The notes under the pieces: model-generated | Databases searched by the model: none | Seen by the model: only the letters and a program-made list of their open reading frames with translations | What the model was told of the DNA's origin: nothing | Part shown: positions 33,326-60,359 of the stretch, piece after piece | Position numbering within the stretch: the stretch's first letter is position 1 | Layout: every line of letters starts with the position of its first letter | Position numbers and translations under genes: made by a program | Virus record (IMG/VR): IMGVR_UViG_3300037509_000016 | Location: 1-60,359 of that record | Source: a virus | Length of the DNA: 60,359 nucleotides | Reading direction: 5' to 3' (one strand)

Positions 33326-33332
33326 ACACAAA

Positions 33333-36806: not shown

Positions 36807-36967
36807 TGCACCCCTACATCCTGAGTAGCGCGGCAGGACTGACCGTCTGGATCCTGGCCGCGCAGATCTTCGGCTGGAAGACTGTCCTGATCCTGGCCGG
36901 CCTGCTGGCCCTGGTCCTTCTCGGCGTGGCTGCGACCGCGGCATTCGAGCGGCGAGGCCAGTCATGA
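36806..36967 (+). CDS. 53-aa two-TM peptide; not in the ORF track
   Basis: MHPYILSSAAGLTVWILAAQIFGWKTVLILAGLLALVLLGVAATAAF... TGATG and ATGA overlaps. Confidence 0.4.
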   Translation: MHPYILSSAAGLTVWILAAQIFGWKTVLILAGLLALVLLGVAATAAFERRGQS

Positions 36968-39928: not shown

Positions 39929-39963
39929 ACGTAGTACACTTCTGCGGTAATAGGACCGACTGA

Positions 39964-40014
39964 CCCCTGACGGCCAGCGAGCCGCGGTAGGGCACCGCGC
40001 TCGTTCGTCAGGGG
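39964..40014 (+). promoter_or_regulatory. Long imperfect stem-loop in the gap before the portal gene
   Basis: cccctgacg (39964-39972) pairs with cgtcagggg (40006-40014). Inner stem cgagccgcgg / ccgcgctcg has one bulge. Confidence 0.4.
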
Positions 40015-40022
40015 GATCAGGG

Positions 40023-42182: not shown

Positions 42183-42183
42183 G

Positions 42184-42807: not shown

Positions 42808-42816
42808 GAGGCTACG

Positions 42817-44382: not shown

Positions 44383-44391
44383 AGGAGCATC

Positions 44392-45087: not shown

Positions 45088-45410
45088 GCCGCTGTACCTG
45101 CGTCAAGAAGCACACCCCTCGCGCCCCAAGGGTGCAGAAGCACCACCTGCGCCCGGTGGCCTGGGGCGGTCAGCGCACCCCACAGAACGAGCGCGAGGTC
45201 TGCGGCACGACGCACGACGCGGTTCACGCCCTGCTCAACGAGTCTGTGCGACGGCGCGAGTTTCCGGACGAGGACTTCCTCAAGGGCTATCCCCGCGCTG
45301 CGGTGGAGATCGCCCGCGCGGGAGTTCAGGCTCATCTCGAGGCGACCGGCGGACAGTGGCCGACGCGCTTCACCAGTGGCGATCCGTCCGGTGAAGCCTC
45401 CGGTGAGTAA
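45084..45410 (+). CDS. HNH endonuclease
   Basis: KHHLRPVAWGG...NEREVCGTTHDAVH. Confidence 0.75.
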   Translation: MSRCTCVKKHTPRAPRVQKHHLRPVAWGGQRTPQNEREVCGTTHDAVHALLNESVRRREFPDEDFLKGYPRAAVEIARAGVQAHLEATGGQWPTRFTSGDPSGEASGE

Positions 45411-45567
45411 GGCAGGGCGCGAGTGTCGAACCTGCCGCCGTGCTCGAGGTCGGGTGCTGGTCTGGGCCGAGCGCGGACGGATCTGGCGCTTCGTGGTCTG
45501 CGATCCGTGCATCGCCCGAGTGGACCGTGAGATAGTGATGCTTCGACGTTTGAAGGGAGTAGCGTGA
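45403..45567 (+). CDS. Small zinc-ribbon protein; start uncertain (GTG 45376, 45391 or 45403)
   Basis: ECRTCRR...VCDPC. The stop overlaps the next start (TGATG). Confidence 0.3.
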   Translation: MSKAGRECRTCRRARGRVLVWAERGRIWRFVVCDPCIARVDREIVMLRRLKGVA

Positions 45568-45695
45568 TGCCAGGCAAGAAGATGAACTCGATTAAGAACG
45601 ACAAGCAGTACGAGGCGCTCCGCGACAAGGGGATGAGCAAGGAGAAGGCTGCCAAGATCACCAACGCGAGCGCGAAGAAGAGCAAGAAGAGCTAG
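45567..45695 (+). CDS. 42-aa basic protein of the widespread K..KQYEALR.KGMSKEKAAKI type; not in the ORF track
   Basis: MPGKKMNSIKNDKQYEALRDKGMSKEKAAKITNASAKKSKKS. ATG is 8 nt after AAGGGAG. Confidence 0.55.
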   Translation: MPGKKMNSIKNDKQYEALRDKGMSKEKAAKITNASAKKSKKS

Positions 45696-46000
45696 TGGAC
45701 CGACGGGCGTTCCTGCATCGGGCGGGCGCGGGGCTGGCCGGCATCATCCTGGCCCAGGTCGCGCCGCCGCTCGTCCGTGACCCGATGCGGGTACGGGAGG
45801 GGCTCGGCGGACTCCTGCTGATCGAGAAGCAGATCCTGCTGCCAGAGTCCTGGCAGGAGTGGGGCATCTTCACGCAGCACACTGGCGGCAAGCTCCTCGA
45901 GCGCCGACTCGAGAACGTCTTTCAGCACGCCGACTATCAGATCCTCGGGGGTCAGGCGTTCCTCGACCGCTTCGTCATTCGCACTGCCGTGGGGGGCTAA
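45695..46000 (+). CDS. Small protein with a twin-arginine (Tat)-like N-terminal signal
   Basis: MDRRAFLHRAGAGLAGIILAQVAPP contains RRxFL plus a hydrophobic region. GTG start overlapping the upstream TAG. Confidence 0.45.
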   Translation: MDRRAFLHRAGAGLAGIILAQVAPPLVRDPMRVREGLGGLLLIEKQILLPESWQEWGIFTQHTGGKLLERRLENVFQHADYQILGGQAFLDRFVIRTAVGG

Positions 46001-49000
46001 ATGGGTGTCACGATTCCGCGGTTCCTGCTCGAGGCGGGTGACTCGCTCGACCTGGGTCTCGATATTCGAGGTGCGGTCGAGTCGCTGAACTTTGGGGAGA
46101 CGCGCGACCGCATCGTGCAGGACTTCCAGCGGACCGTGGTGCCCAACATCACCAGCCCGTTCAGTGGGCTGTCCCCTGGCGCGGAGTTGCAGCAGTCCAG
46201 CGGCCCCACTCCGCTGTCCCCTGCTGCCTCGCCTACCCCGATGCGTGACGACTGGTCACAGCCGAGCTCGACGCCGTCGGGCGGGACTGCCGCCCCGATC
46301 CTGCCGAGCTTCGCGCAGCGCCAGGAAGGGTTTGGCGGCTCGCCCAACAGTGGATTCGGCCCGTCCGACTTCGACGGCGGCAACTTTGAGCTGTCCGACA
46401 CCCGCCAGATCGCGCCGCAGTTCTACGACGAGCCCGAGCCCGCGCCTACCCAGACCTTCGGCCCGCCCGAGCGTGACGACTACCGCAAGACCGCGCCCGA
46501 TGCCCAGGGCGGAATGTCTACCGACATTGAGACCTACATCCGCCAGGCAGCCGAGCAGCGCGGGATTGACCCGAATATCGCGGTCAAGGTCGCCAACACC
46601 GAAGGCGGCGTGACCGAAGCCGCCCGCCGTGGCACGTTCTCGACGGGCTCAAGCTGGTGGCCGTTCCAGCTCCACTACGGCGGCAAGGGTTACGAGCATC
46701 TGGGCGATACCGCCGGGATGGGCAACACCTTCACCGAGCGGACCGGCTTCGCTCCCGGCGATCCCGCCGCGGTCTATGCCTCAATCGACTACGCCCTCGA
46801 CCACGCCAAGAACAACGGATGGGGTGCCTGGTACGGAGCCAAGGCCATCGGCATCACCGGTAAGCAGGGTATCAACGACGAGCCGCCCCAGACCTCGCCA
46901 GCCGCTGGCCGTCCTGCCCCGAAGCCGCCCGGCCAGCTTGGGCCTGCTGGTGACTACGACTCGAGCGATATCGAGCACATCAACCAGGTGGCCCTGGCGA
47001 GCCCAACCAAGTGGTCGGAGTGCGGACCCGTCGCTGCTGTGATGGCCGCGCTGCGCCGTGGGAAGGCGTGGACGGTCGAAGAGGCCAAGAACGCTGCCGC
47101 GGCCATGGATCTGTGGTCCGCCGATATGGGGATGCGCGGGCTCGGGGCTGAGGTCAAGCTGCTCAACTCCATGGGGATGACGGCTGCCACCGGTCCCGCC
47201 GAAGAGCGTGCCCTGATCGAGGACACCACCAACGGCAACACGCCGATTATCAGCACCAACAAGCACTACTACATTCTCGACGGCTACGACCCCGCGACTG
47301 GCAAGTTTGACACCGTGACCACCGGCCCGACGATGAAGGGCGGCAAGCGGTGGATGAGCCTCGACGAGATCGCCGCCCAGGGTGGCGGGATTCAGGGCGC
47401 GGCGTTCATCGACAACCCGCGCACCGACAAGCCCTCGATCGTCTCGGACGCCTACTGGGAGCAGGGCGGGCCTGCCACCCGCGCCACGGCTGCCGAAGCG
47501 GTCGAGCCCGACCCGCTGACCGGCGAGCCGCCGAAGCACGGTCTGACGGTCAGCCCCGATGAGCGCAACGAGTGGCAAGACCTGTTCAACAGCTTCTCGA
47601 GCGGGATCGAGGCCATCGACGAGCAGCTGGCTCATGGACGCGACAACGTCCAGAAGTTTGTCAGCGAGGTCGGCGGCGGGGTGGGCGATCTGCTCGGTGG
47701 CGCAGGCGCTGCTGTCGGCGGGGCTGCTGACCGTCTCGGGACCGAATTCCGTGACCGTCTCGACCAGGGGGCGGCTGACGTAGGTGGGGCTGCGGCCAAT
47801 GTCGGCAGCACCTTCGACCAGCTTGGCTCAGGGCTGCGCGGCGGGCTCGACCAGGCAGGCGAGGCTATCGGTGGTCGATTCGACGAGCTTGGTACCGCAG
47901 CTCGAGGGCGGCTCGATCAGGACGCTGCTGACCTTGGGCAGGCCACGACGAGTATCGGGGACACCTTCAGCCAGGCGGGGACGACCGTCCGCAATCGTCT
48001 CGATCAGGACGTTGCCGACCTGGACCGTCTCGGTGGGGATATCCAGAACCTGCAGACGTTCGCAGCCCAGAAGTCCAACGAGCTTGCCGGTGCGCTGAAC
48101 GCCTCGAGTGACACCCTGGCGACGTGGGTCAACGACCAGGCAGCCGCTCCGCTCTCGATCCCCGACCGTGCCGTTGCCGCAGCCCAGGAGACGATCCGCC
48201 AGCTTGACACGCTGGTGACCCAGGAAGCCGAGAAGGCCCGCACTGGCACGAACCCGAACGAGCGGATCGCTGTCGAGATGTTCGACACCATCGGCACCCA
48301 CATCCGCCGCGCTCGAGAAGCCCAGGCGAAGGGTGACACCCAGGGGATGGTGGCCGAGACGCTCAAGGCGACCGTGGCTGCCTCCCCGCGTGGAATGTCG
48401 GCCCAGATTGTGACCGGCGTGGCGGGCGATGCCGCGGCCCAGTTCGGCGGTGACACCACCAACCAGCGAGCCGCTCGAGGTGGGATGGTCAACGTCGAGC
48501 CCGGCGAGGTGGACAAGACCCTCGACGACGCGACGGCCCGAAGCAACGCCCTGCAGCGCGGGCTCCAGAACGCCAAGAGCGGCATTCTCGAGGGTCTCGC
48601 CATCGGTGGCCGTGCCCTCGACCCTGACGGGGACTCGCAGTTCGCCCGCTTTGTCGAGAATGAGGCCGACAAGACGCGCACCTACCTGAACGAGCACCCT
48701 GAGATTCTGCGCCGCCGTGGTGTCGGGGCGACCGGCGAGGAAGGCAACTTTGGGGATGCCATGATCGAGGCGCTGCCTGCCATGGCTGGCACCGTGATCG
48801 GTGGCGGGCTCGGTGTCGCGGCCACCGTCCTTGGTACTCGCCGTGGTGGGGCTGCTGTCGGTGCGCTCGGGACCGTGGTCGGCAAGGCGCAGCTACCGAT
48901 CCTCGGGGTGATGGCGGCGGGCTCGGCTCGCGAGAGTATGGAAGACCTCGTCCAGGACGGGAAGCTCTCGCCGGAGATGGCTGACACCCTGTCCGGTCTT

Positions 49001-52000
49001 GCCGGCGTGGTCGAGGTGGCGACCGAGCGGCTCGGTGTCGAGCAACTGGTGGGGGCGGGTGCTACCCGCATCGCTGCCCGCCAGGCAGCCGAGATCGCCG
49101 CACAGGGCGTGATCAAGCGCGGCTTTGGCACCGTCACCCGCGACACCGCCCAGGCAGCCGTGGCCGAAGGGCTCGAGGAGGTCATCGCCCAGGAGTACGG
49201 CAACGCCGTCCGCATCATCGCCGGCGACGAGCGCACCGACTGGGGCACCGGTGTGGTGGACGCCTTCCTGCTCGGTGGCACGATGGGCGGCGTCATGAGC
49301 GGGGCGATGGGTGCAGCCGAGCTCGGAGCGGACCGCGCCGGCCCTGCCGCTCGAGCCGCCGTCGGAGCGGTGGACCGTGGGCTGACTGCTGCGACCGAGT
49401 CCCCCGCGATGCAGCGCATCGTCCGCCCCGAAGGTGGCACCTCGCTCGGGATGGGCGCGGGTGCCCTCGCGGGCTACACCGCAGGCCCGCGCACCAGCCC
49501 CGAAGGCGAGACTATCGACTACCAGCGTTCGCCGGACGAGACGCCCGCCGGTCCTGCCGAGTCTGCCGAGATGGGCCGTGGCCCAGGTGGTATCCCGCGC
49601 GAGGCAATGCGCGAGGGGCCGAAGGGCGAAGCGGCCAAACGCGCCTGGCAGTCGGTCAAGGGACCGGTGACCCGCGTTCTGAACCAGAAGGCCGCGCAGA
49701 TGCGCCCGCAGGCCGACCCGCCCATCGTCAAGGTCGGCAATGAGCCGCCGCGGCGCTCGACACGGCTGGAGCCGCCAGAGGGGTTCGCTCGCCCTGGCGA
49801 GTTGACCCGCTCGAGTGAGGCGGATCTGCCCAACCGTGAGGTCTTCGAGCGGGTGGCGAAGAAGTTCCCAGAGGTGCGGATGGTGGACGGTGGCTACTTG
49901 CTGCCGAACGACAAGGCCGCGCGGTGGGAGTTGATCGACAAGCTGATCCGCCCGAATGATCGAATGCCGCCCGGTCTCGAGAACCCCGAGATGGAGGCGT
50001 TCCTCGGGAACCTGAACCGTGTTCGCGAGGGCATCGGGACCGGTGAGACGCAGCCCGAGACGATGATCCTGGCGGCGCTGCTCTCAATGGGCTCGATCAA
50101 GCGGGCGGGCTCGAGCGCGACCGGCGCGATTCAGCGAATCTCGAATATCCGCGGCGAGCCACTGGCGGGTGAGGAGCTTGCCGCTCGAGTGCAGCCCAAC
50201 ATCTACCCTCAGGCGAAGGGTGGCGGTCAGGAGCGCGGCATCCTGATGCGCCCCGAAATTCTCTGGTCGATGGTGGCGGGCGACACCACCCGCCCCGAGA
50301 TGATGAAGATGCTGGCGGGGATGACTCGGGCGGGTCAGTTCTCCAGCGAAGAGGCCCGCGAGGCTGCCGTCGAGCAGGGCGTGCGCCAACTGTACAGCGA
50401 GGTCAGTGGTCCAGGATCCGGGTTCGGCGGAGCCAACAACGACGTACAGAACATTCTCGGGCTCAATTACATGGTCAAGGGCGAAGAGATTCAGTCGCAG
50501 ACCCCTGGCTGGACCCAGACCGAAGGCAAGCGGTGGACCGACCTGGTTGACGCGGTGCTCAAGCGCGGTCCCTACACCGGCACGACCGGCGAGGACGCGC
50601 GGAAGAAGCAGGTGACCCGCCAGCTTCGCTTGAGCCCGCGCGGGATCGGACAGGTCAAGACCCGTTTCAATCAGGCGATGGGCGGCTTCCCCGAGTACGC
50701 CACGCTCGACACTCGGATGCTGCGCGACGTGTTCGGAATCAGCCCCAAGGTCGGCAGTCTCTCGACCGACGAGTACGAGCGCCTGTCCGAGCGCCTCTGG
50801 GAGTTGGAGCCCAACAGCAAGTATCTCTACGGTGCGCAGTGGCTGCCGTGGGAGTTCCTGACCGGCGAGCGGGTCAACTACGACTCACTGATCGGCACCT
50901 ACGACCGTGTCAACTCCTTTATGCGCCGAGCCAATGACATGGCCTCGCGCCAGAAGATCCCGCTGGATCAGGCCATCGACCAGCTTGCCGCCACCGAGCA
51001 GCGCGTCAACCTGACCCTCGCAGACCCCGCTCAGGTCGAGGGACGGATCGGTCTGAGCGGTGACGCGCTCCGCGCCCTGCCCCCAGGCGCGGGCATCGGC
51101 CAGGTCCAGAAGGCTGTCCCAGAGCTCTTCCGCCTGATCCGTGACGCCGGCCTCGAGGTGGTCAACCGACCCTCGACCGCGACCGGCGGCTGGATGGGCG
51201 AAGCGACGACGGAGGTACCCGACGGGCGCTACGTCGAGGGCTCGCTCGACCTCGTCCTGCGCGGCCCGAAGCCGGCCCTGCGCTGGTTTGCCGCGGCCAG
51301 TCTCTTCGTCTCCCCTGGCGAGCAGGCTGTCTACGTCGGCTACACCGGCGCGGGCTCGACGAACCAGCACGCCGTGGGCACCTTCACCATCAAGGGCGTG
51401 GACCGAGCCGAGCAGCCCGACTTCGTGCAGCGCCTGCTCGATGTGGTCCCCGACGGTGTGACCGTCCGGACTGGCACCGTTCGGACCGCGAAGGGTGATC
51501 TGATCGTCGAGATCGGCTCGCAGGAATCTGCCGAAGTGGTGCAGGCCACACTCGAGAAGGCTTTGGTCACACTTGCGACAGCAGGGTATACTGTTAGTGA
51601 CCTGGCGGTAACGCCCGCTGAGGTCGAATTCATCGCGCGGGCGGACGCGGAAGCGATCGTGCGCGGCGGTCCGAAGGGGGTATCCGTCAATGGCCCAGGA
51701 ACAGATGTGGGAGGAACTGCGCCGAATCTTCTCGACGCCACCAACGGAGGAGGAGATCGCGCCCCACCGGGAGCGGTTCGCGAAGATGCGGGAGGATCTG
51801 GAGCGCCAGCCGCTGCAGGCACGGATCTCGACCGCGCGGGCGGCACAGCCGCAGGAGGAGCCGCCCCAGGCGTAACGACAGCACCCACCGACACGCCCGC
51901 CCCGCCCGCCGGTCCTCCTGCCGGTGGCGCGGGGCGTTCGCTTGTGGACGAGCTTCGCGACACCCTCCGCAACGAGATGGGCACCATCGCGGGGGAGATC

Positions 52001-55000
52001 CGTACGCAGCTTCGCCAGGAGTTGCTCGGAGGCTCGGCTGCCGCCCCTGCCGCCGCAGGCCGACCGAACAACGACCTCCGCGCCCTGCCCGACGAGACCA
52101 TCCAGCAGTTCCGCACCCGCTTGCACCAGAAGTACGGTGTCGCCAACACCGCAGAGGACTACCCCCGCCTGCTCGAGGAGATTACGGAGGGCGAGCGCCA
52201 GGAGCTGATGCGGATGCGCCGCGAGATCGACGATGTACTCGACGCACCGCCGTCCGGCCAACCCCTGCCGCCAACCCCTGCCGCCCCGACCGGTCCACAG
52301 CCCCGCGCCGCTCGAGGCGCTTCTGGCAGCGGCACCGCGACCATCGGATTCTCGCCGGACTTCTTCCTGAAGGAGATCAACAGCCGCTACCCCGACGATA
52401 AGGGGGCCATCTCGGTCAAGGAGATGGTTCAGAACGCGGTGGACGCTACCAGCGCCCAGATCGCGACCGGCAAGACTACGGACACGCCGCTCACACGGAT
52501 CCTGATCGACCAGCGGACGCGCGAATTCGGGGTCTGGGACCAGGGGACCGGTATGGTCTCGGAGGTGCTCGAGAACGAGTTCGTGAAGTTCGGCGGCTCG
52601 CTCAAGGGCGACAACGCTCGAGGCGGGTTCGGCACCGCCAAGATCGCCATCCTGGGCAACGCCGAGAAGATCGCGCTGGTCTCGGTAGCCGAACGGTGGA
52701 CGGTGACCACGCCCGCTGGCGAGTACTATGCCGCGGCCACCGAGCAGCTGGCCCAGGCGTGGCTGGACAAGCCCGAGAACGCCAGCGTCCGACGGCTGAA
52801 TCCGACCGTCCAGAACGAAGGCGTCTTCGTCAGTGTCGCGCACGGCAACGCTGAGGACTACGTCAACCCTGAGAAGGGGCTGACCACCCGCTTTGCTCGG
52901 TGGGAGGTTCGCCAGGAGCTCCTCGACGACATGTCCATCCCGCTCGAGGTGCGTGACGCCATCGGCGGCTGGCGCGTCCAGGGTGAGACGGTTCCGCCGG
53001 TCGCGTCGGCGGCAGAGGCGGAGGCACCCGAGAGCCGCAACCTGCCAACGGGCTGGAAGATCGACCGCCTGCTCGAGGCCAACGAGAACGACTACGGCGA
53101 CTGGATGAACAACGTCGCCGGTGCGCAGGATACCGACTGGGCGCTCTTCGACCAGAACGGCCAGGTCGTCACGACCGACCGCGCCGTCGGGGGCCGTGGA
53201 CGGACTCGAGCCCAGGCCGAGAGCATCTTCACCGACTACTTCAAGGGGTTCGGATCCGCCACGCGACAGGGACAGCAGTTTGCCCGCGCGATGGCCGAGA
53301 AGCAGAAGGCCCAGAGCCGCGGCCCGCAGCCACAGCCGATTCGACAGGCCAACGGGCTCCCGCGCGGCTGGACCGTCCGCCAGATGCGCGATCTGTCACC
53401 CGCCGATCAGGCCGATATGCGGAGCGAAGGCTTTGTCCCTGACGCCTGGATCCTGCGGACCGGCGATGGAGACGCTATCTCGAGCCTGCCAGGGGAAGCG
53501 GCGCGGAACGCTGGCGAAGCTGCCGAGCAGATCCGCCGTCGGCCCGGCATCGCCACGGCGATCGAGAACGAGCTTCAGGTGCTGGCCCAGGAATACAAGA
53601 TGCCGAAGGGCTGGCGGCTCGCACAACTCGACAACATGGCAGCAGAGGACCGTGGGGCCGTCTTCGACTACGCCAACAACCTGCTGGCGATGCAGCCCGA
53701 AGACCTGGACGGGCGCGATTGGTTCCTGCTGGACGAAAACAATACCGTCATCTTCCACGGCAGCTTTATGCCGAGCGAGGCCACCGCTGGTGCTCGGCAC
53801 CGTGAGGCTGCCTGGGCCAACGTCATCGACTCCCTTGACGAGATTGACGACTACCACACCGAAGCTGCCGACACCCTCCGAGACAACTACGAGGGCACCC
53901 GAGCCGAGCCCGAGTCTACCGAGCCCGTCTACACCGTCCCTGAGGATTGGACATTCGCCCGACTGTCCGACCTTGACGAGAACGCGCGGCGCGAGGTGCA
54001 GGCCCAGGTCGAAGACCCGTCCTTTATCGACGAGCGCGACTGGTACCTGCTCGATCACCGCAACCAGTTGCTCTGGCAGGTTCCCTGGACCGCCGGGATG
54101 GTCTCCAACCCTGCCGCCACGCGCGAGTCTGCCTGGGGCTACGTGCTCGAGAACCTCGACGCGCTTGACGCAGACGGACGGTCCGGTGACGAGATCCGCG
54201 CCACCGCTCAGACCGCAGCCGCGCCGCAGCAAACACCTGGCCCGCGCCAGCCCGCCGACCCAAACGCTCCGCCGCAGGTGGGCACCTATCTCGGGATCCA
54301 GCTACGGAAGGACGCCCGATTCAGCGCCCACCCCACCTCCTGGGACGCCGCGCCCTACCGCAAGTGGATTGATGGCTTCCTGGCCTCGTCGAAGCTGAAC
54401 GACCAGCGCGTCGAGTTCTACGACAACGGTGGGCGGATCGCTGCCCCAACCAACCCTGAGGACACCGCCGACCAGAAGCTGACCACGCTCACGGTGCCAG
54501 GCGCTCAGGTCGATATCTGGATCAGCAAGGCGTACCACTCCGCCCCGCGCCTGCGCGTCAACTACCTGAACAACGGGCTGCCGCAGACGACCGGCACCGT
54601 CGAGTTGAACGAATCGACCAACGTCCCCAAGACCATCGTGGTGGACGTGCGCTCGACCGTCCCTGCTGGCTCGCCCAACTACCCATGGTCTGCCGACCGC
54701 CAGCGGCTCGTCCAGGACGCGGCTACGTCGGTTGATGTGTACCTGACCCGCGAGATTGCCGAAGCAGCCAAGCGAGCCGAGTCCAAGGCGCTGCACAAGG
54801 CGCTCGACTCGGGCTACACCGTCCCGCGAGCCCAGGGCAAGCTGCTGGACACCACCGCGGCAATCCCCGTTGACGTGATGAACCGCTGGCGGCAGCAGCC
54901 CTGGATGCGCCTGATGATGAACGGGGCGGCTCGCGGACACGACGCCCTGACGAAGATGACCGAAGGCAAGCCGAACGAGTTCGACGACTCGTCCTTCCGC

Positions 55001-58000
55001 GGCTCGGAGTGGCTCGGGTTCGGCACCTCGCGCGGGTGGGTTGGGCTGAACATTGACACCATCTCGATTGGCAAGAGCCAGAAGTACAGCATCCTGCTCA
55101 ACCCCTGGCTGTTGCTGCAGGAGTCGGTCAACAAGGTCCGACGCGAGCACGGCTCGCTGTACGCCGCTCCGAAGGGTGAACTCGAGGGCGTGATCTCGCG
55201 GCGGATGGCTGCGGTCCTGACCCACGAAGTCATCCACAACTCGCCTGGCGGGCGGAACACCGACCATGGTGCCGCCTTCGCTGGTATCCAGACCCGAATG
55301 GGCGTGGAGCTCGCCACCCACCCCGACGTGATTGGCCCGATCCGCAAGGCTGTTCGTCAGATGCTGGCCGATCCCGTCAACCTCGACCAGGCGCTGGATT
55401 CGCGCAACGAGTGGGAGGGCTACGCCACGTCGCAGAACGCCCTTGGCAAGATCGGACTCGAGGAGAGGAGCAACGATGCCGAACCAGAAGGAGATCGAGG
55501 AGACGTTGGAGGGGTTCCTGCAGGCGTCGATGGACCCGCTGCAGCGCGGGGCGGCGGTGGCGTACCTCGAGGAGGCGTCGAACCGGGGGCTGGACCCGCA
55601 GGAGATGTGGGAGACGGTGCGACAGGGACGGACCGAGATTCCGCCGTACCTGGAGCTGGTACGGAACGCCCCGAGAGGGACGACCCTTTCCATTCCCGAC
55701 TCCGACGAGCGATCAGCGGAGTCAGAGAGTCGTCCTTCCCCGCAAATATCCTCCTCCGACGACTCGAGAGTGGCTCCCTCCCAAGCCCCTTCAGTCGAGC
55801 CGAAGTCGTCTGGACCGGGCTCGACGACTACCTCCGAAGCAGAGGGACCGACACTCTCCGAAAGGATGACCTCCTTGCCTGGCTCGACGACCACGCCATC
55901 CGAGTCGAGGAGACCGTCCTCGAAGACCGCGACGAGCAGGACGAAGACCCCGACACCGGCCCGACCGAGCTAACGGAAGCTGCCGACCGTCTGCGGACCT
56001 ACCTCGAAGAGAACATGGAGAGCATTCTCGCTGACACCTGGCTCGCGCCCGATGCCCGCTCGCGGCTTGAGCGGATCATCGACGATGCCATGTACGCCGA
56101 CAACGTCGATCTGCCCACCGTACTTCGCAATGGGTCCGCAACCCTGCGCCTGGTCGAGAACAACGAGCTTCATGACTGGCTGGACGCCTTCGAATTGGTC
56201 GATACGCCCGAGAATCGTCCGCAGTACGGCGCGGGCAGGGCGATCTACGGCCCCGAAGGGCAGCACGGCCCGGAGCTGGTCGAGCCCGGCGGGCGCAACT
56301 ACCGCGAGTTACTCCTGCGCCTGCCCCCGCTCTCGACACCTGAGGTCACCGAGCGGTACGACGCGATGCCGGGCGAGCCGTCCCAGATGAGCGAGTTCGG
56401 TCCCGACGATTACCAGTCAACCCACTGGCCCAACGACGCGAACGTCCTGGCTCACGTTCGATTCGACGAGCGGACCCGCGAGACACCGAACGGCGAGGAG
56501 CGGGTGCTGTTCATTCAGGAATTCCAGTCCGACTGGGCGCTCGACGTGCTCAAGAGCGGCGTGCGTGGCACCACCGACCCGATCACCCGCTTGCGTGCGA
56601 TGGGCTACACCGTCGAGTTTGACGGCGGTGGCGTCACCGTCACCGATCCCGCGACCAACCAGCGCCTGATCACCCCCGACGATATGGCGATGTTCGGGCA
56701 GGCCCGCTCGACCGAGATCGAGGCTCCGCCAGAGGTCGCGGCGCTGATCGCGGAAGCCTACGACATGACCGAGACGCGGGGTGGCGGAATGCCCCCGCCT
56801 GCTGGCCCATTCGTGGTCAACCCGACCAAGACCGGCGCGAGCGGCGACTGGATCGACCTCGGGGTCAAGCGGATGGTTCGGTGGGCGGTGGAGCACGGCT
56901 TCGACCGTCTCGCCTGGACGAGCGGCGAGCAACAGATCAACCGCTACCACCTCGAGACGATGGCTGACCGCCTGGATCTGGTCACCCGCCCAGACGGGAC
57001 CGAGCGCCTCGAGGTGTACCGCAACCGCACGTTCCAGAAGGCTATCCCGCTGAACCAGCCCGATGCTGAGGGTGAAGGTGGCTCGCTCGAGTCGATGGTT
57101 GGTCCCGAGATCGCAGCCCGTCTTCGGGCGCAGCCGCCGTCCGGTACCACTGGCACGACGCAGCCGCTTGAGTCGCAGACCCGCGTCCTGAACCTGACCG
57201 AACAGGTTGGCGTCGGTGGCCGCGGCAAGCGGAAGCTGTACGACGAGATGGTCCCGAGCGCGGTCAAGCGGGTGATGAAGAAGTTTGGCATCCGCGACCA
57301 GCCCATTGAGATGCCCTTCCCCGAGAGCGCGGGCGCGGGCATCAGCGGTGACGCCGACCTGAACCATGTCGTTATGGACCCGAACAACACCATCTACGAC
57401 GCCTTCTCGACGCTCGGAGAAGCTGAGCGAGTTGCCGCCGACGCCGGACCTGGCTACTACGTGGCCTCGACCGACCGAGTCAAGCAGGAGCAAGTTCACT
57501 CGGTTCCGATCACCGATGAGGTGCGCGAGTCCGTGCTCGGCAAGGGCTGGCCGCTGATGGGCATCGTCGGCGGGATTGGGATTGAGAACCAGCAGTTCCT
57601 ACGCGACACCATCGGGGCTGGTGGCGACGACGAAGAAGACCCCGAGACCTTCAGCGGGATGGGCGCGGTCGCGGGGATGGCGCTCTTCAGCGGACGGAAG
57701 GGCGGCGGCAAGTTTATGCGGGCCGCGATGCGCTCGCAGAAGGCCGCTGCTGGCGCACAGCGTCCCGCGCCGCCAGTCTTCGGTCAGCCAGAGGTAGCCG
57801 AAGAAGATCGCCCGCGCGGCGTCACGCCGCTCGACTGGATCAAGCAGGTGGGCTACTCGGGGATGATCGGCCCAACCGCCTTCGTGACCAACACCGCCGG
57901 CAACGCTATCGAGACGTTCTACAACCTGCCGAAGCAGTCGCTGCTGCTGGCGACTCGGACTGGCGAGGCTTCGACCCTGATCGCCCCGACAGCGGCAATC

Positions 58001-59560
58001 CCTGGCGCGGTGATCAGCGCCGGGGCCGAGTTCCTCCGTACCCTTGGGCGCGGCTCGACGCACGGCGGCAACGTCAACCAGGCGCTCTCAGACCGTCTGT
58101 CCAACCCCGTTGCCAAGGCTGCCGCCACGTTCCTCGAGGTGGGCGGGCGGCTGTTCACCGAAGCGCCCGACATGGCCCAACGCCGATTCGTCGATATCTG
58201 GGGCCGTGAGGTGGCCGCTGCCTACGCTGCCGCGGCGGAGGGCAACCGTGGGATGGCGCTGGTCGGGCGCGGGCGTGAGATCGCCCGCCAGTCACGCGAG
58301 GACAAGGACGACCCGAATGCGCTGCTGCGCGGCGTCCACTCCGATGAAGTCAACGCCGTGACGCAGCGGCTGACCGACCTGATGAGCTTCCGTGGTCCGA
58401 TGGGCTCGAAGGGCGAACAGGTCAAGAAGTTCCTGAATCCGACCAGCGACAAGGCATTCGATCAGGCCATCGGTATGGCGTTGCACCTGGCCGTGCCGTT
58501 CTTCGCCACGCTGTACCACCTTGGTGCTCGAGGGGCCGAGCGGACGCCAGGGCTCGGGGTCTTCGCTGCCACGCCCGCCGACGAGAAGGTCTACGACCAG
58601 CTGGTGGGCGGGCTGATCACCGCTGGCATCGTCGGGCTGGCGATGGGCGGGCTGCTGACGGGCAGCGGACCGGACGACCCAGAGAAGCAGCGGATGGAGG
58701 CCGCGCTCGGGCGCAAGAACAACTCGATCCTGCTGCCAATTCCTGGTATCGGGCCGACCTATGTCCCGAACGCCATGATGGGTGTCTGGGGGCCGCACCT
58801 GAACCTGGCCGGCGAGATCGCGGATGCCTTCCGATACAGCGAGGGCAAGCAGGCCGAGAATATGACCCTGACCCTGCTCGGGCGCGTCGGCAAGGTCGGG
58901 GCGGACCTGTACTATATGCGCGGTCTGACCGATATTGTCTCGACGCTGCTCAAGCCAGAACTCGAGCTCGAAAACTTCATCGCGGGCCAGTTCACCCGCC
59001 TCGAGCCCTACGCCGCGACCGGTCGCTCGGTTGCCCAGATCTCTGACCCCTACGAGCGCAGCACTGACCGCAAGGCCGGGCTCGGGGAGCGGATCAAGGG
59101 CGAGGTACAGCGGACCATCCCTGGTTGGGTGCCTGGCATCCCCAACCGCCAGAACCTCCGTCAGGCCACCGACGTGCTCGGCAACCCCGTACGGAACATC
59201 CGCCAGAACCTGCCGCCAGGTCTGCCGTCCATTGGTCGGCCACGGCGCGATCCAGTTATCGAGGAGTTCCGACGCTCTGGCATTGATATCGGGAACCCGC
59301 CGAAGTCGATCCAGATCGACATGGGCAGCGATCAGGCCGACGTTCCGCTGACCGAGCGTGAGGCCGACCTGTACAAGATGATCATGGGCGAGTACATCCA
59401 GGAGAACTTCTCGAGCGCATCCGACGGCTATGGCGACGACGAGATCCCCGAGCGGCTGCGCCGTCTCTCAACCCGAGCGCGGGCTGCCGCGGCCCGAGCG
59501 ATCAAGGAAAGCTGGACTGAGGAAGATGTGCGCCGGCGCACACTGGCAGGAGCGAGGTAA
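46001..59560 (+). CDS. Giant polyvalent virion-module protein (4,519 aa). Contains an SLT-like muramidase, a C39-like Cys peptidase, Gly-zipper/TM-like segments, a GHKL-type ATPase-like domain, a 4x PxGW repeat module, an HExxH metallopeptidase-like motif, conserved polyvalent-protein modules, and a hydrophobic C-terminal region.
   Basis: One uninterrupted ORF. IETYIRQAAEQRGIDPNIAVKVANTEGG (Glu codon 46601). WSECGPVAA...NKHYYILDGYD (Cys 47021, His 47264). EMVQNAVDA/DQGTGM/GGFGTAK (52421-52645). HEVIH (55223-55237). VLFIQEFQSDWA and VHSVPITDEVRESVL modules. Confidence 0.9.
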   Translation: MGVTIPRFLLEAGDSLDLGLDIRGAVESLNFGETRDRIVQDFQRTVVPNITSPFSGLSPGAELQQSSGPTPLSPAASPTPMRDDWSQPSSTPSGGTAAPILPSFAQRQEGFGGSPNSGFGPSDFDGGNFELSDTRQIAPQFYDEPEPAPTQTFGPPERDDYRKTAPDAQGGMSTDIETYIRQAAEQRGIDPNIAVKVANTEGGVTEAARRGTFSTGSSWWPFQLHYGGKGYEHLGDTAGMGNTFTERTGFAPGDPAAVYASIDYALDHAKNNGWGAWYGAKAIGITGKQGINDEPPQTSPAAGRPAPKPPGQLGPAGDYDSSDIEHINQVALASPTKWSECGPVAAVMAALRRGKAWTVEEAKNAAAAMDLWSADMGMRGLGAEVKLLNSMGMTAATGPAEERALIEDTTNGNTPIISTNKHYYILDGYDPATGKFDTVTTGPTMKGGKRWMSLDEIAAQGGGIQGAAFIDNPRTDKPSIVSDAYWEQGGPATRATAAEAVEPDPLTGEPPKHGLTVSPDERNEWQDLFNSFSSGIEAIDEQLAHGRDNVQKFVSEVGGGVGDLLGGAGAAVGGAADRLGTEFRDRLDQGAADVGGAAANVGSTFDQLGSGLRGGLDQAGEAIGGRFDELGTAARGRLDQDAADLGQATTSIGDTFSQAGTTVRNRLDQDVADLDRLGGDIQNLQTFAAQKSNELAGALNASSDTLATWVNDQAAAPLSIPDRAVAAAQETIRQLDTLVTQEAEKARTGTNPNERIAVEMFDTIGTHIRRAREAQAKGDTQGMVAETLKATVAASPRGMSAQIVTGVAGDAAAQFGGDTTNQRAARGGMVNVEPGEVDKTLDDATARSNALQRGLQNAKSGILEGLAIGGRALDPDGDSQFARFVENEADKTRTYLNEHPEILRRRGVGATGEEGNFGDAMIEALPAMAGTVIGGGLGVAATVLGTRRGGAAVGALGTVVGKAQLPILGVMAAGSARESMEDLVQDGKLSPEMADTLSGLAGVVEVATERLGVEQLVGAGATRIAARQAAEIAAQGVIKRGFGTVTRDTAQAAVAEGLEEVIAQEYGNAVRIIAGDERTDWGTGVVDAFLLGGTMGGVMSGAMGAAELGADRAGPAARAAVGAVDRGLTAATESPAMQRIVRPEGGTSLGMGAGALAGYTAGPRTSPEGETIDYQRSPDETPAGPAESAEMGRGPGGIPREAMREGPKGEAAKRAWQSVKGPVTRVLNQKAAQMRPQADPPIVKVGNEPPRRSTRLEPPEGFARPGELTRSSEADLPNREVFERVAKKFPEVRMVDGGYLLPNDKAARWELIDKLIRPNDRMPPGLENPEMEAFLGNLNRVREGIGTGETQPETMILAALLSMGSIKRAGSSATGAIQRISNIRGEPLAGEELAARVQPNIYPQAKGGGQERGILMRPEILWSMVAGDTTRPEMMKMLAGMTRAGQFSSEEAREAAVEQGVRQLYSEVSGPGSGFGGANNDVQNILGLNYMVKGEEIQSQTPGWTQTEGKRWTDLVDAVLKRGPYTGTTGEDARKKQVTRQLRLSPRGIGQVKTRFNQAMGGFPEYATLDTRMLRDVFGISPKVGSLSTDEYERLSERLWELEPNSKYLYGAQWLPWEFLTGERVNYDSLIGTYDRVNSFMRRANDMASRQKIPLDQAIDQLAATEQRVNLTLADPAQVEGRIGLSGDALRALPPGAGIGQVQKAVPELFRLIRDAGLEVVNRPSTATGGWMGEATTEVPDGRYVEGSLDLVLRGPKPALRWFAAASLFVSPGEQAVYVGYTGAGSTNQHAVGTFTIKGVDRAEQPDFVQRLLDVVPDGVTVRTGTVRTAKGDLIVEIGSQESAEVVQATLEKALVTLATAGYTVSDLAVTPAEVEFIARADAEAIVRGGPKGVSVNGPGTDVGGTAPNLLDATNGGGDRAPPGAVREDAGGSGAPAAAGTDLDRAGGTAAGGAAPGVTTAPTDTPAPPAGPPAGGAGRSLVDELRDTLRNEMGTIAGEIRTQLRQELLGGSAAAPAAAGRPNNDLRALPDETIQQFRTRLHQKYGVANTAEDYPRLLEEITEGERQELMRMRREIDDVLDAPPSGQPLPPTPAAPTGPQPRAARGASGSGTATIGFSPDFFLKEINSRYPDDKGAISVKEMVQNAVDATSAQIATGKTTDTPLTRILIDQRTREFGVWDQGTGMVSEVLENEFVKFGGSLKGDNARGGFGTAKIAILGNAEKIALVSVAERWTVTTPAGEYYAAATEQLAQAWLDKPENASVRRLNPTVQNEGVFVSVAHGNAEDYVNPEKGLTTRFARWEVRQELLDDMSIPLEVRDAIGGWRVQGETVPPVASAAEAEAPESRNLPTGWKIDRLLEANENDYGDWMNNVAGAQDTDWALFDQNGQVVTTDRAVGGRGRTRAQAESIFTDYFKGFGSATRQGQQFARAMAEKQKAQSRGPQPQPIRQANGLPRGWTVRQMRDLSPADQADMRSEGFVPDAWILRTGDGDAISSLPGEAARNAGEAAEQIRRRPGIATAIENELQVLAQEYKMPKGWRLAQLDNMAAEDRGAVFDYANNLLAMQPEDLDGRDWFLLDENNTVIFHGSFMPSEATAGARHREAAWANVIDSLDEIDDYHTEAADTLRDNYEGTRAEPESTEPVYTVPEDWTFARLSDLDENARREVQAQVEDPSFIDERDWYLLDHRNQLLWQVPWTAGMVSNPAATRESAWGYVLENLDALDADGRSGDEIRATAQTAAAPQQTPGPRQPADPNAPPQVGTYLGIQLRKDARFSAHPTSWDAAPYRKWIDGFLASSKLNDQRVEFYDNGGRIAAPTNPEDTADQKLTTLTVPGAQVDIWISKAYHSAPRLRVNYLNNGLPQTTGTVELNESTNVPKTIVVDVRSTVPAGSPNYPWSADRQRLVQDAATSVDVYLTREIAEAAKRAESKALHKALDSGYTVPRAQGKLLDTTAAIPVDVMNRWRQQPWMRLMMNGAARGHDALTKMTEGKPNEFDDSSFRGSEWLGFGTSRGWVGLNIDTISIGKSQKYSILLNPWLLLQESVNKVRREHGSLYAAPKGELEGVISRRMAAVLTHEVIHNSPGGRNTDHGAAFAGIQTRMGVELATHPDVIGPIRKAVRQMLADPVNLDQALDSRNEWEGYATSQNALGKIGLEERSNDAEPEGDRGDVGGVPAGVDGPAAARGGGGVPRGGVEPGAGPAGDVGDGATGTDRDSAVPGAGTERPERDDPFHSRLRRAISGVRESSFPANILLRRLESGSLPSPFSRAEVVWTGLDDYLRSRGTDTLRKDDLLAWLDDHAIRVEETVLEDRDEQDEDPDTGPTELTEAADRLRTYLEENMESILADTWLAPDARSRLERIIDDAMYADNVDLPTVLRNGSATLRLVENNELHDWLDAFELVDTPENRPQYGAGRAIYGPEGQHGPELVEPGGRNYRELLLRLPPLSTPEVTERYDAMPGEPSQMSEFGPDDYQSTHWPNDANVLAHVRFDERTRETPNGEERVLFIQEFQSDWALDVLKSGVRGTTDPITRLRAMGYTVEFDGGGVTVTDPATNQRLITPDDMAMFGQARSTEIEAPPEVAALIAEAYDMTETRGGGMPPPAGPFVVNPTKTGASGDWIDLGVKRMVRWAVEHGFDRLAWTSGEQQINRYHLETMADRLDLVTRPDGTERLEVYRNRTFQKAIPLNQPDAEGEGGSLESMVGPEIAARLRAQPPSGTTGTTQPLESQTRVLNLTEQVGVGGRGKRKLYDEMVPSAVKRVMKKFGIRDQPIEMPFPESAGAGISGDADLNHVVMDPNNTIYDAFSTLGEAERVAADAGPGYYVASTDRVKQEQVHSVPITDEVRESVLGKGWPLMGIVGGIGIENQQFLRDTIGAGGDDEEDPETFSGMGAVAGMALFSGRKGGGKFMRAAMRSQKAAAGAQRPAPPVFGQPEVAEEDRPRGVTPLDWIKQVGYSGMIGPTAFVTNTAGNAIETFYNLPKQSLLLATRTGEASTLIAPTAAIPGAVISAGAEFLRTLGRGSTHGGNVNQALSDRLSNPVAKAAATFLEVGGRLFTEAPDMAQRRFVDIWGREVAAAYAAAAEGNRGMALVGRGREIARQSREDKDDPNALLRGVHSDEVNAVTQRLTDLMSFRGPMGSKGEQVKKFLNPTSDKAFDQAIGMALHLAVPFFATLYHLGARGAERTPGLGVFAATPADEKVYDQLVGGLITAGIVGLAMGGLLTGSGPDDPEKQRMEAALGRKNNSILLPIPGIGPTYVPNAMMGVWGPHLNLAGEIADAFRYSEGKQAENMTLTLLGRVGKVGADLYYMRGLTDIVSTLLKPELELENFIAGQFTRLEPYAATGRSVAQISDPYERSTDRKAGLGERIKGEVQRTIPGWVPGIPNRQNLRQATDVLGNPVRNIRQNLPPGLPSIGRPRRDPVIEEFRRSGIDIGNPPKSIQIDMGSDQADVPLTEREADLYKMIMGEYIQENFSSASDGYGDDEIPERLRRLSTRARAAAARAIKESWTEEDVRRRTLAGAR

Positions 59561-59563
59561 GTC

Positions 59564-60359
59564 ATGGCCGCACGACGAGACCCCAAGGGGCTGTTCAAGG
59601 ATCCGGTGTCGCAGAACGACACCGATATCAACGGGCAGCGCGTCACCACCGACGACCAGAAGGGCAAGTACTACGCCCTGACCTACACCTTCAACGACGG
59701 CACCAAAGAGACGCGCGTCTACAAGTACGGCTCCGCTGGCGAAGACGGTCAGGATCAACTGGTCAACACCCGCAACCCTGGCATCGACCCCGAAGTCAAG
59801 AAGATGTGGGACGACGAGGTCAAGGCTGGCGGCTCGGGCCAGCCGACCAACGGCGTCATGTCGATCCAGGTCCAGAAGCCCGACGGCGTTCACATCTTCG
59901 GGTGGGATCCGGCGGCAAACGAGGGGCGGGGCGGCTACACCATCGACGAAGGGCTGGTAAAGGACAAGCCAGCCGCCGGCGGTGGTAACACTGCCATCCG
60001 TCAGGATCCTGATACGGGCAAGTGGTACGACGACACCGTCGATCCGGTCACCGGTCGGGTCACCTCGAAGCAGCGTGCCGCTCCGACCAACAAGATCGAG
60101 CCCGATCCGTCGGACCCGAACAAGTGGCGCGAGATCGACACCCAGACCGGCAAGGTGATCGCCACTGGCACCATCGGCAAGGCACCCACCCTCAAGTCGA
60201 AGGACGAGGTCAACCACACCACCAGCGATGGGCGCAAGGGGCGGCTCGTCACCATCACGATGAGCGATGGTACGACCCAGACCAACTTCGTCGAGGCCGA
60301 GAAGGGCAAGGTCGAGCGCGAGAAGACCGAGACCGACAAGGACGGCGTGACCTGGGTCA
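59564..60359 (+). CDS. 5' portion of the junction-spanning 664-aa virion-module protein; continues at 1..1326
   Basis: ATG after GGAGCGAGG, 4 nt past the giant gene's stop. I translated the frame by hand and found no stop up to the window end. The phase matches position 1. Confidence 0.7.
   Translation, partial: MAARRDPKGLFKDPVSQNDTDINGQRVTTDDQKGKYYALTYTFNDGTKETRVYKYGSAGEDGQDQLVNTRNPGIDPEVKKMWDDEVKAGGSGQPTNGVMSIQVQKPDGVHIFGWDPAANEGRGGYTIDEGLVKDKPAAGGGNTAIRQDPDTGKWYDDTVDPVTGRVTSKQRAAPTNKIEPDPSDPNKWREIDTQTGKVIATGTIGKAPTLKSKDEVNHTTSDGRKGRLVTITMSDGTTQTNFVEAEKGKVEREKTETDKDGVTWV
60233..60359. repeat. Right copy of the exact 127-bp terminal direct repeat
   Basis: Identical to 1..127. Confidence 0.95.

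Follow-up and report, generated by a model that had tools for sequence, protein, structure and literature searches.

What does a phage do with a single gene that takes up more than a fifth of its genome? The question is raised by record IMGVR_UViG_3300037509_000016 of the IMG/VR virus collection, whose 60,359 nucleotides were analysed over their full length (hereafter the window) and which carries, at 46001..59560 on the plus strand, an ATG-initiated gene of 4,519 codons encoding a protein of 483.6 kDa and pI 4.9 (hereafter the giant). We consider it probable that the giant is packaged in the virion and ejected at infection as a 'pilot' protein that doubles as a polyvalent effector. An initial annotation of the window had likewise suggested a polyvalent internal or effector protein, and the homology of both ends of the giant to internal virion proteins supports this proposal, in which packaging is a deduction. 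As judged from sequence comparison, the giant has gp16-like ends that lie about 3,800 amino acids (aa) apart, with extra domains accreted between them; these include a GHKL ATPase and a zincin-like site that belong to one widespread unit, and an enzyme-like module that is uncatalogued in Pfam.

A single coding frame of 13.6 kb

The giant gene contains no stop codon, its G+C content at third codon positions (GC3) lies between 0.71 and 0.88 in each 900-nucleotide (nt) block, and its codon usage correlates with that of six other genes of the phage at r = 0.97 in frame, compared to 0.25 and 0.16 out of frame. The frame is coding over the whole 13.6 kb, which bears out the uninterrupted open reading frame (ORF) of 4,519 aa described in the initial annotation. 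The numerous long antisense ORFs inside the gene are due to the sequence being 67% GC. All ten motifs that had been quoted were found where they were expected, the three catalytic codons being exact to the base: VANTEGG at aa 197-203 (codon of Glu201 at nt 46601), SECGP at aa 339-343 (Cys341, nt 47021), HYYILDGYD at aa 422-430 (His422, nt 47264), the GHKL motifs EMVQNAVDA, DQGTGM and GGFGTAK at nt 52421-52447, 52538-52555 and 52622-52642, HEVIH at nt 55223-55237, and HWPNDANV..., VLFIQEFQSDWA and VHSVPITDEV... at aa 3475, 3502 and 3832.

Bases 1-127 of the window recur exactly at its end (60233-60359); the assembly must hence be either a circle or a terminally redundant molecule, and its unit length is 60,232 bp. 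The giant gene represents 22.5% of this unit genome: the share of about 22% given earlier stands, and the 60-kb length to which it referred was that of the window. An identical protein entry (P0029) is present in a 1.84-billion-protein library; the exact protein is absent from the contig index.

The two termini resemble internal virion proteins

Near the N-terminus, aa 165-297 (46493..46891, plus strand, as for all features of the giant below) form a lysozyme-like cell-wall hydrolase domain with a putative catalytic residue, Glu201, in the motif A-x-[ST]-E-G-G, whose Glu is invariant (alignment A4, E42). It shares 37-45% identity with proteins described as internal virion or injection proteins in three alphaproteobacterial podophages, namely Sulfitobacter phage phiGT1 (gp18), Sinorhizobium phage phiM5 (gp28) and Ochrobactrum phage OH. 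The record of phiM5 gp28 reads 'detected in phage particle proteome ... internal virion protein/exolysin', and that of phiGT1 reports an HHpred match to FlgJ-type and other muramidases. In a 5.8-billion-protein database, the domain is found at 55-73% identity fused to NlpC/P60, M23, SH3 or LysM, and the proteins concerned are therefore modular wall hydrolases.

The initial annotation had named this domain an SLT-like muramidase. The place of the Glu motif and the wall-hydrolase context were upheld; the SLT identity is not established: PF01464 gave no Pfam match in the giant at E <= 1, and an hhalign comparison with Pfam-verified SLT was collinear, with the catalytic Glu aligned, at a probability of only 8.6% (E 0.004). 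Two syntenic giants, P0032 and P0084, carry a true SLT at the place of the lysozyme-like domain, which argues for functional equivalence of the two. As a sequence-based assignment, the wall hydrolase is well supported by context.

At the opposite end, aa 4166-4500 (58496..59500) form an IVP-D-like domain with a candidate transmembrane (TM) helix at aa 4196-4224 and the motif LLTGSGPDDPE. The last ~330 aa are kept at the extreme C-terminus of the giants P0031, P0032, P0033 and P0084, where the motif reads LLTG[SD]GPDDPE. The family phrog_6651 ('internal virion protein') matches aa 4201-4355, with an E of 1.6e-6 for the whole protein and 1e-7 for the region searched as a piece. When the C-terminus was used in tblastn, weak, consistent matches to ~40-kb T7-like phages of Roseobacter and Synechococcus were obtained. 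In particular, aa 940-1173 of Roseobacter phage CRP-114 gp40 (IVP-D, 1,334 aa) match aa 4166-4381 of the giant (E 3.5e-6), and the same IVP-D also matches the C-termini of four other giants (E 3e-10 to 3e-4). Local phmmer iteration on the C-terminus gave no relatives, whereas BLAST did, and the Pfam model LPD38 was not matched by the C-terminal domain of the giant, of four related giants or of CRP-114 IVP-D. The extreme C-terminus is basic (RRRTLAGAR). Note that the last ~900 aa, previously described as a hydrophobic region, are not generally hydrophobic: they contain three hydrophobic segments (aa 3989-4012, 4152-4176 and 4196-4224), of which only the third (Kyte-Doolittle 2.04) is a strong TM candidate, the other two being weaker.

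A GHKL ATPase and a zincin-like site in one conserved unit

To collect relatives of the central part of the giant, aa 2095-3200 were compared exhaustively, by HMMER, with a set of 1.84 billion representative proteins; 304 proteins were returned (E <= 0.001), nearly all 1,000-5,900 aa long, a compact one being P0083 with 518 aa. A word-indexed search with aa 1951-3250 gave no matches, probably because it was swamped by low-complexity words. The relatives match the giant over two blocks, aa ~2117-2300 and aa ~2755-3160. Of 149 relatives, 136 have the two blocks in the order seen in the giant, with a spacing of only 30-110 aa. Over aa 2232-2762 of the giant, alignment occupancy is below 20%, which corresponds to ~500 aa missing from the relatives. 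By sequence comparison, a single conserved unit (hereafter the GHKL-zincin unit) begins with the GHKL ATPase and finishes with the HEVIH site, which are thus not the separate elements that they had been taken for.

The first block contains an Hsp90-type GHKL (Bergerat-fold) ATPase domain (aa 2110-2232; 52328..52696), on which Pfam, profile and structural comparisons agree. Upon scanning in 600-aa pieces, the Pfam model HATPase_c_3 scored 26.1 bits (cutoff 25), and a profile of the family of relatives compared with the PDB retrieved the N-domains of HtpG, TRAP1 and Grp94 with an E of ~1e-6, then MutL and Topo VI-B. In an AlphaFold2 (AF2) model of the unit (pLDDT 67.5 overall, 80-95 in the C-terminal block), the top 50 Foldseek matches were all Hsp90-family N-domains, with probabilities of 0.99-1.00. 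These results confirm the GHKL ATPase-like domain of the initial annotation. Motifs I (ExxxNxxD), II (DxGxG) and III (GxxGxG) occur in order and are highly conserved in 133 relatives: E2141 (99%), N2145 (98%) and D2148 (97%) in motif I, D2180 (99%), G2182 (100%) and G2184 (100%) in motif II, and G2208 (99%), G2209 (96%) and G2211 (100%) in motif III, along with K2202 (98%). The middle and C-terminal dimerisation domains of Hsp90 were not found, all sequence matches being confined to the N-domain, and the part of the unit downstream of the ATPase domain has no sequence match in the PDB.

In a viral structure library, the model of the unit matched rIIA, phage 'HSP90 family' proteins and one large viral protein. 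The last of these, BFVD entry A0A516L4L2_1 (a segment of 1,404 residues), aligned with the model over 544 columns (E 5e-10); as judged from the models, this protein of a UniProt-listed virus probably carries the GHKL-zincin unit.

The second block comprises a conserved middle region followed by the zincin-like site (aa 2755-3130; 54263..55390). The middle region is marked by N2857, G2859, Q2862, Y2894-P2895 (99% in the 133 relatives) and R2900 (100%); by analogy with other GHKL enzymes, R2900 may be the gamma-phosphate-sensing residue of a transducer-like domain. The unit ends with HExxH-x(5-9)-H, whose residues are conserved at 95% (H3075), 96% (E3076), 96% (H3079) and 84% (H3089), HExxH being present in 126 of the 133 relatives. 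The HEVIH sequence, earlier noted as a metallopeptidase-like site, is thus part of a family-wide HExxH...H motif that is 95-96% conserved. In the model, a beta-sheet is followed by helix 966-984 (AF2 model numbering), which carries HExxH at its end. As for zincin families, the giant matched a SprT-like model with an E of 0.3, and WLM matched the equivalent site of the relative P0030 with an E of 2e-4 and 21.9 bits (cutoff 26). The triad, the modelled position on the helix and the sub-threshold WLM match point to a zincin-like metallopeptidase site.

The ~500 aa missing from the relatives include four diverged alpha/beta repeats of ~80-110 aa (P.GW ... DW.L.D; aa 2343-2750; 53027..54250), which lie inside the GHKL-zincin unit. 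They are 17-30% identical to one another, each is predicted by AF2 to be a small alpha/beta domain, and there is no repeat at the DNA level. Given the absence of this stretch from the relatives, the divergence of the units and the lack of a DNA repeat, it is an old, lineage-specific insertion. The four PxGW repeats recorded previously are four genuine units, although the motif itself is P.GW in three and PEDW in one.

An enzyme-like module shared with polyvalent-type proteins

Further downstream, a module of ~650 aa that is uncatalogued in Pfam (aa 3208-3860; 55622..57580) displays an enzyme-like set of invariant residues, H..N..H.R...R ... E.QSD ... R ... YD ... K. No Pfam model, PDB sequence match or significant fold was found for it, the best Foldseek E being 0.04, with a weak list of GNAT folds. 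Its 28 remote homologues (at most 30% identity) are all large multidomain proteins in which the placement of the module varies. Pfam scans revealed KfrB, GGDEF, RadC-JAB, C5-methylase, GP88 and, below threshold, ART-PolyVal elsewhere in these polypeptides. The module is found at ~aa 3474-3817 of a 5,000-aa 'LPD23 domain-containing protein' encoded by 220-280-kb plasmids of Pseudomonas aeruginosa (locus L007, NZ_CP115292.1 67300-82302; the 'plasmids' are from cystic-fibrosis isolates). It is also found in a hypothetical protein of the 209-kb jumbo phage Dfl-JY45 of Dolichospermum (PP438435.1, 71425-72762; 24% identity over ~515 aa, E 9e-14); no other isolated phage gave a match to a central part of the giant. 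The modules with HWPND... and QSDW, recognised initially as recurring in polyvalent-type proteins, do recur there, in the company of ART-PolyVal, RadC, KfrB, GGDEF, C5-methylase and LPD23.

Relatives of the giant and the integrity of the assembly

Two larger giants were recovered from independent assemblies. P0032 (5,713 aa) is encoded on a syntenic 62.4-kb contig (L004), in the order 759-aa homologue of a 719-aa protein of the window, small genes, P0032, genes for 497 and 306 aa, major capsid protein (MCP) and homologue of a 1,071-aa protein of the window. P0031 (5,889 aa; L003), whose gene has a papain-like peptidase gene upstream, has a series of domains in common with the giant, in unchanged order: the hydrolase and the peptidase near the N-terminus, the GHKL-zincin unit, the beginning of the module and the C-terminal domain.

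The GHKL-zincin unit is present on 21 IMG/VR contigs with a GC content of 35-69%, in open frames of 1,400-5,245 aa. Among 185,579 reference genomes it was found on three contigs only, all from metagenome-assembled genomes; it was found on no plasmid, and the genomes of 50,697 isolated phages gave no match even when E values up to 1 were allowed. In a tblastn comparison with these phage genomes, the giant showed no similarity beyond the lysozyme-like domain and the module. In other relatives, the unit is joined to LPD38, to a 2H phosphoesterase or to M23 and SLT. A T7-like gp16 slot for the gene of P0030 is suggested by gene sizes only, and the neighbours bear no similarity to annotated podophage proteins.

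These relatives bear on the possibility that the giant is an artefact, i.e. several genes fused by mis-assembly or by lost stops. The assembly is of a metagenome type, circular through the 127-bp overlap, and has no close relative against which it could be cross-checked. However, codon usage and GC3 are uniform over 13.6 kb that contain no internal stop, in each of the two independent assemblies the syntenic giant (5,713 or 5,889 aa) is likewise a single ORF whose domains are ordered in the same way, and the 21 IMG/VR contigs hold the unit in long open frames. We therefore regard an artefact as extremely improbable.

The giant gene lies in a head-assembly block

The genes around the giant gene form a co-oriented, tightly spaced head-assembly block. 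Its order is TerL, a 195-aa, a 719-aa, a 207-aa and a 521-aa protein, a 231-aa peptidase, a 108-aa protein, a 101-aa ORF and the giant, then a 664-aa protein, a 331-aa scaffold-like protein and an HK97-type MCP. The large terminase (37767..39359, plus strand) was assigned by phrog_979 (E 1.4e-39) and the MCP (2621-3562, plus strand) by phrog_212 (E 3.5e-68), and the 331-aa protein (1613-2608, plus strand), which is acidic and coiled-coil, is scaffold-like by its sequence features. The Pro/Ala-rich 664-aa gene (59564..1326, plus strand) begins 3 nt past the stop codon of the giant gene and wraps the window end; cut by the window boundary, it was missed in the ORF listing. The giant gene had been placed between the portal and scaffold genes. 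A scaffold-like gene is indeed found downstream, but the 664-aa gene intervenes, and the portal label is unconfirmed: the 719-aa protein (40023..42182, plus strand), whose homologues lie upstream of the giants in L003 and L004, is a portal by position only. Its size and position fit, yet no similarity to any portal was detected: PHROGs, Pfam, tblastn against phages and a comparison of a profile built from three sequences with the PDB all gave no match. The proposed MuF slot was not substantiated either, as neither Pfam nor PHROGs gave a MuF match in the giant or its neighbours.

The 231-aa papain-like peptidase (44392..45087, plus strand; phrog_16701, with a weak Peptidase_C1 match) has a homologue upstream of P0031 (L003 6556-7179), the two being ~207-231 aa long; its role may be to process the giant or head proteins. 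The 101-aa ORF (45695-46003, plus strand) is in the frame of the giant, from which it is separated by a single TAA directly before the giant ATG (…GGGGGGC TAA ATG…), and has at its start a Tat-signal-like RRAFL motif, next to which comes a hydrophobic stretch. A small gene just upstream is likewise in frame with the giant gene in L003 and L004, but not in L005 and L031; the arrangement could be fortuitous, could reflect read-through, or could mean that the ORF is spurious. Ahead of the 101-aa ORF is a gap of 284 bp, which contains an unlisted, highly basic ORF of 42 aa (45567-45695, plus strand; MPGKKMNSIKNDKQYEALRDKGMSKEKAAKITNASAKKSKKS). No promoter or terminator consensus was found near the start of the giant gene, and no tRNA genes were found.

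The phage has no close isolated relative by megablast or MCP-based searches: its MCP is at most 41% identical to that of any isolated phage among 50,697 phage records. Scanning metagenomes with the zincin block gave no close phage relative, and we know of no cultured host or isolate for this lineage. Homologues of gp14, gp15 or tubular tail proteins were not recognised among its genes. Just downstream of the capsid and adaptor genes lies a gene for a 442-aa sulfatase (5374-6702, plus strand; PF00884, E 1e-35, plus SGSH_C). A sulfatase is unusual among virion genes; it may be carried on the tail and act on a sulfated capsule or exopolysaccharide, and would then be a hint to the host. A 1,071-aa protein (9545-12760, plus strand) has repeated-domain matches to virion, fibre and baseplate PHROGs, and a 27% identical homologue occupies the same relative place in the 62-kb contig of P0032 (L004 31322-33661); it is probably the tail fibre or spike of the lineage.

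The initial annotation had remarked on the absence of tape-measure and tube genes. We concur: no tail-tube, chaperone or tape-measure family was detected downstream, where most proteins are matchless. Could the giant itself be the tape-measure-like tail protein of a long-tailed phage? Tape measures often bear lytic transglycosylase or peptidase domains together with hydrophobic segments, and the lysozyme-like domain also matches annotated tape measures of the Rhizobium phages RHph_TM16 and RHph_Y1_11. In addition, the nearest MCP relatives are mostly from Paenibacillus, Streptomyces and Gordonia phages, which we take to be siphoviruses, and no other candidate is visible, the largest other ORF having 1,071 aa. 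By contrast, the scaffold and capsid genes follow the giant gene, which is not preceded by genes for a tail tube or a chaperone, families that were not detected, and the C-terminus matches a podovirus IVP-D. Two AF2 models show mixed alpha/beta globular domains and no long helical rod. Moreover, with the rule of thumb of ~0.15 nm of tail per residue, 4,519 aa would imply a tail of ~680 nm. A tape-measure function is accordingly very unlikely.

We think it even less likely, indeed highly improbable, that the giant is displayed on the outside of the virion, where it would bring its enzymes to bear on the host surface, be it as a giant fibre, as a decoration protein or as an adhesin. Wall-degrading enzymes and repeats would suit such a protein, and the sulfatase and the 1,071-aa fibre-like protein encoded in the same gene module suggest that surface polysaccharides are attacked. 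However, a GHKL ATPase and a zincin would be deprived of ATP in the extracellular space, the giant matched none of the fibre, collagen, Ig or beta-helix families, and the virion proteins that it resembles are internal, not external.

Other regions of the giant

The first 160 residues (46001..46480) are a Pro/Ser/Gly-rich, low-complexity stretch that, by composition, is probably disordered. The lysozyme-like domain is followed by a putative papain-fold Cys peptidase domain of the Peptidase_C39_2 type (aa 323-470; 46967..47410), with Cys341, His422 and Asp429 as putative catalytic residues. PF13529 aligns with it almost over its full length (profile positions 2-134 of 143), with an E of 0.03 and 15.3 bits (cutoff 24 bits); two homologues score higher, also below the cutoff (P0179, E 1.6e-4, 22.7 bits; P0180, E 0.013). 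In the giants P0031 and P0032, the equivalents of Cys341 and His422 are invariant, and the position of Asp429 is occupied by Asp or Asn. For the C39-like peptidase of the initial annotation, the Cys and His motifs are in place and the PF13529 alignments are consistent, but all of the latter score below threshold. Profile matches of this region to the PDB were dismissed as artefacts (designed Kelch repeats).

An Ala/Gly-rich zone then extends over aa ~500-1200. It had been described as ~700 aa of RxRLDQ repeats; the zone is as described, but the repeats are limited to four copies spread over ~110 aa. These are amphipathic-helix repeats of ~22-29 aa (aa 572-690; 47714..48070) with a weak match to the Pfam family Apolipoprotein and no DNA-level tandem repeat beneath them. 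The same zone contains three Gly-zipper-like hydrophobic segments, detected by a Kyte-Doolittle scan at aa 920-946, 950-976 and 1084-1106 (48758..49318), and the stretches at aa 920-976 and 1084-1106 agree with the coordinates first noted for TM-like segments. Finally, aa ~1290-1900 (49868..51700) form a globular region that has no family match and of which only aa 1682-1781 are common to the giant P0031.

Proposed role of the giant

From the identity of the domains, their conservation, the gene context and the homology of the termini, we infer the following packaging, ejection, topology, self-processing and substrates. The giant would be made late and packed in the capsid near the portal. At infection, it would be threaded unfolded through the tail, ahead of the DNA or with it. 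The N-terminal enzymes would open the peptidoglycan; the hydrophobic and Gly-zipper segments and the C-terminal domain would engage the cytoplasmic membrane and help to form a conduit for the DNA; and the central domains would reach the cytoplasm. The GHKL centre is placed there because only in the cytoplasm would an Hsp90-type ATPase find ATP. The GHKL domain, the middle region and the zincin could then work as an ATP-driven clamp coupled to a metalloprotease. The zincin, the C39-like peptidase or both might cut the polyprotein at its low-complexity linkers (aa ~58-99, 1897-1988, 2073-2121 and 3173-3225), thereby releasing working fragments; alternatively, the unit might attack host proteins. 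The 650-aa module would perform an enzymatic step against the host.

The same ATPase also speaks for a different role, that of a late protein that is not packaged and works in the producing cell, either as a giant assembly factor (the ATPase acting as a chaperone and the two peptidases processing head components) or as an anti-defence hub, in which case the wall hydrolase would contribute to lysis. GHKL ATPases require ATP, and virions have none. The gene has scaffold-like and capsid genes as neighbours, a gene for a separate papain-like peptidase is close by, and the evidence for packaging is indirect. Furthermore, rIIA and topoisomerases, the GHKL proteins so far described from phages, work inside the cell (PMC7824862), and rIIA is among the structural matches of the unit. 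On the other hand, both termini resemble internal virion proteins, the combination of a hydrolase, TM segments and low-complexity linkers is typical of ejected proteins, and the relatives carry effector-type domains of polyvalent proteins. An assembly chaperone, for its part, needs neither 4,519 aa nor wall hydrolases. A purely intracellular role is, on balance, unlikely.

Several points weigh against the virion-packaged pilot protein that we favour. Packaging and ejection, whether of the giant or of its close relatives, are deduced from sequence, and a 484-kDa polypeptide that includes an ATPase would be a heavy cargo to unfold and thread. The tail genes could not be typed, which leaves a podovirus morphology not established, and the giant gene is found between a putative portal gene and the scaffold gene, unlike that of gp16, which in the canonical arrangement follows gp14 and gp15, downstream of the tail-tube genes. 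The C-terminal likeness to IVP-D is weak (21-25% identity, tblastn E 3e-5 to 0.6), and the lysozyme-like domain has no Pfam family and no sequence match in the PDB. Although the module is shared with polyvalent-type proteins, none of the Pfam LPD, PolyVal, MuF, ArdC, ART, methylase and helicase models matches the giant itself.

A bolder version of the pilot-protein reading can be formulated, which we put forward tentatively and rate as rather doubtful. The GHKL domain, the middle region with R2900 and the zincin would constitute an undescribed, phage-restricted machine found in the giant injected proteins of many phage lineages (GC 35-69%), i.e. an ATP-gated device that would sense its entry into the ATP-containing cytoplasm, refold the threaded protein carrying it and cleave this protein into active effectors. 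A DNA-ejection channel protein and the whole arsenal of early effectors would thus be merged in one 484-kDa polypeptide, and the module would represent another enzyme family that awaits characterisation.

What happens in the first seconds of an infection is decided by pilot proteins that are ejected and by polyvalent effectors, very few of which have been studied. Judging from the giant, a phage lineage may be able to combine the ejection protein that crosses the envelope with a large set of enzymes, and to devote 22% of its genome to the product. Two conserved units also come to light, the GHKL-zincin unit and the 650-aa module; their catalytic signatures are clear, and neither has been described experimentally. 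In a protein that sets out from a capsid devoid of ATP, an ATP-dependent unit could serve as a switch that is thrown only once the cytoplasm of the host is reached. These questions can be approached by comparison with the syntenic relatives, among them the 62-kb lineage of ERZ25038328 NODE_93 and the contig GCA_034680565.1.

Comparison with known systems

Like polyvalent proteins (PMC5512222), the giant strings a wall hydrolase, a Cys peptidase, an ATPase, a zincin and an enzyme-like module in one polypeptide, and it is encoded among co-oriented late virion genes (TerL, scaffold-like, MCP), a layout that is also that of L004. In polyvalent proteins, the zincin MPTase is a hub domain that has been proposed to process them, and the lysozyme-type domain and LPD38 are restricted to those of the phage type (PMC5512222). 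The giant has in common with this class the HExxH...H motif of a zincin, a lysozyme-like domain and the module found in ART-PolyVal, RadC, KfrB and LPD23 proteins. The main text of the same study does not mention a GHKL/Hsp90-type ATPase, a statement that does not extend to its supplementary domain list (PMC5512222). With its 4,519 aa, the giant stands at the very large end of the class, for which one annotated example of 5,000 aa was found, on the Pseudomonas megaplasmid.

Proteins of the gp16 type have a phage-specific N-terminal wall hydrolase and, in all surveyed homologues (609-1,337 aa), C-terminal TM helices (PMC8954989). Like T7 gp16 and IVP-D, the giant combines an N-terminal hydrolase, homologous as far as sequence comparison can tell, with a predicted C-terminal TM helix, an IVP-D-like domain and a basic C-terminus, and it would be expected to thread unfolded and then refold. 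Unlike them, it is 3.4 times longer than the largest surveyed gp16-like protein (1,337 aa), its centre is filled with enzymatic domains, and the weak likeness to IVP-D is limited to ~220-330 aa.

The virion RNA polymerase (vRNAP) of N4-type phages, the classic example of a giant protein that is packaged and ejected, is reported to have ~3,400-3,500 aa (PMC11445570; PMC5512222), likewise contains a zincin MPTase domain (PMC5512222) and takes up a large share of a mid-sized podovirus genome; the vRNAP is delivered by the virion, as the giant would be. The giant is not an N4-like vRNAP: tblastn gave no match to any N4-like phage, and no RNA polymerase family of PHROGs or Pfam was matched. Similarly, the Microbacterium podophages of Cluster EK and Burro, whose circularly permuted genomes are of ~54 kb, have giant genes of >13 kbp that encode >4,400 aa and occupy ~25% of the genome; Burro virions contain a ~250-kDa band, and the EK/Burro giant protein is probably virion-associated and processed (PMC7302621). 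The giant resembles them by its gene size, genome share, high GC content, adjacency to portal or head genes and few recognisable domains, but differs by the type of capsid protein and the gene order. Homology to Burro gp27 was rejected: BLAST gave E values of at least 0.16, the hidden Markov models of four conserved units failed to match it, and it has no HExxH or Bergerat motifs.

Lastly, the GHKL domain keeps Bergerat motifs I-III, as do the ATPases of Hsp90/HtpG and rIIA, and its best profile and fold matches are Hsp90 N-domains. Unlike in Hsp90 and rIIA, the ATPase domain is followed by an unrelated middle region of ~370 aa with a zincin-like end, and is embedded in giant proteins. The class to which the giant belongs is known; what is new is its size, its gp16-like framing, the widespread and apparently undescribed GHKL-zincin unit and the Pfam-uncatalogued module.

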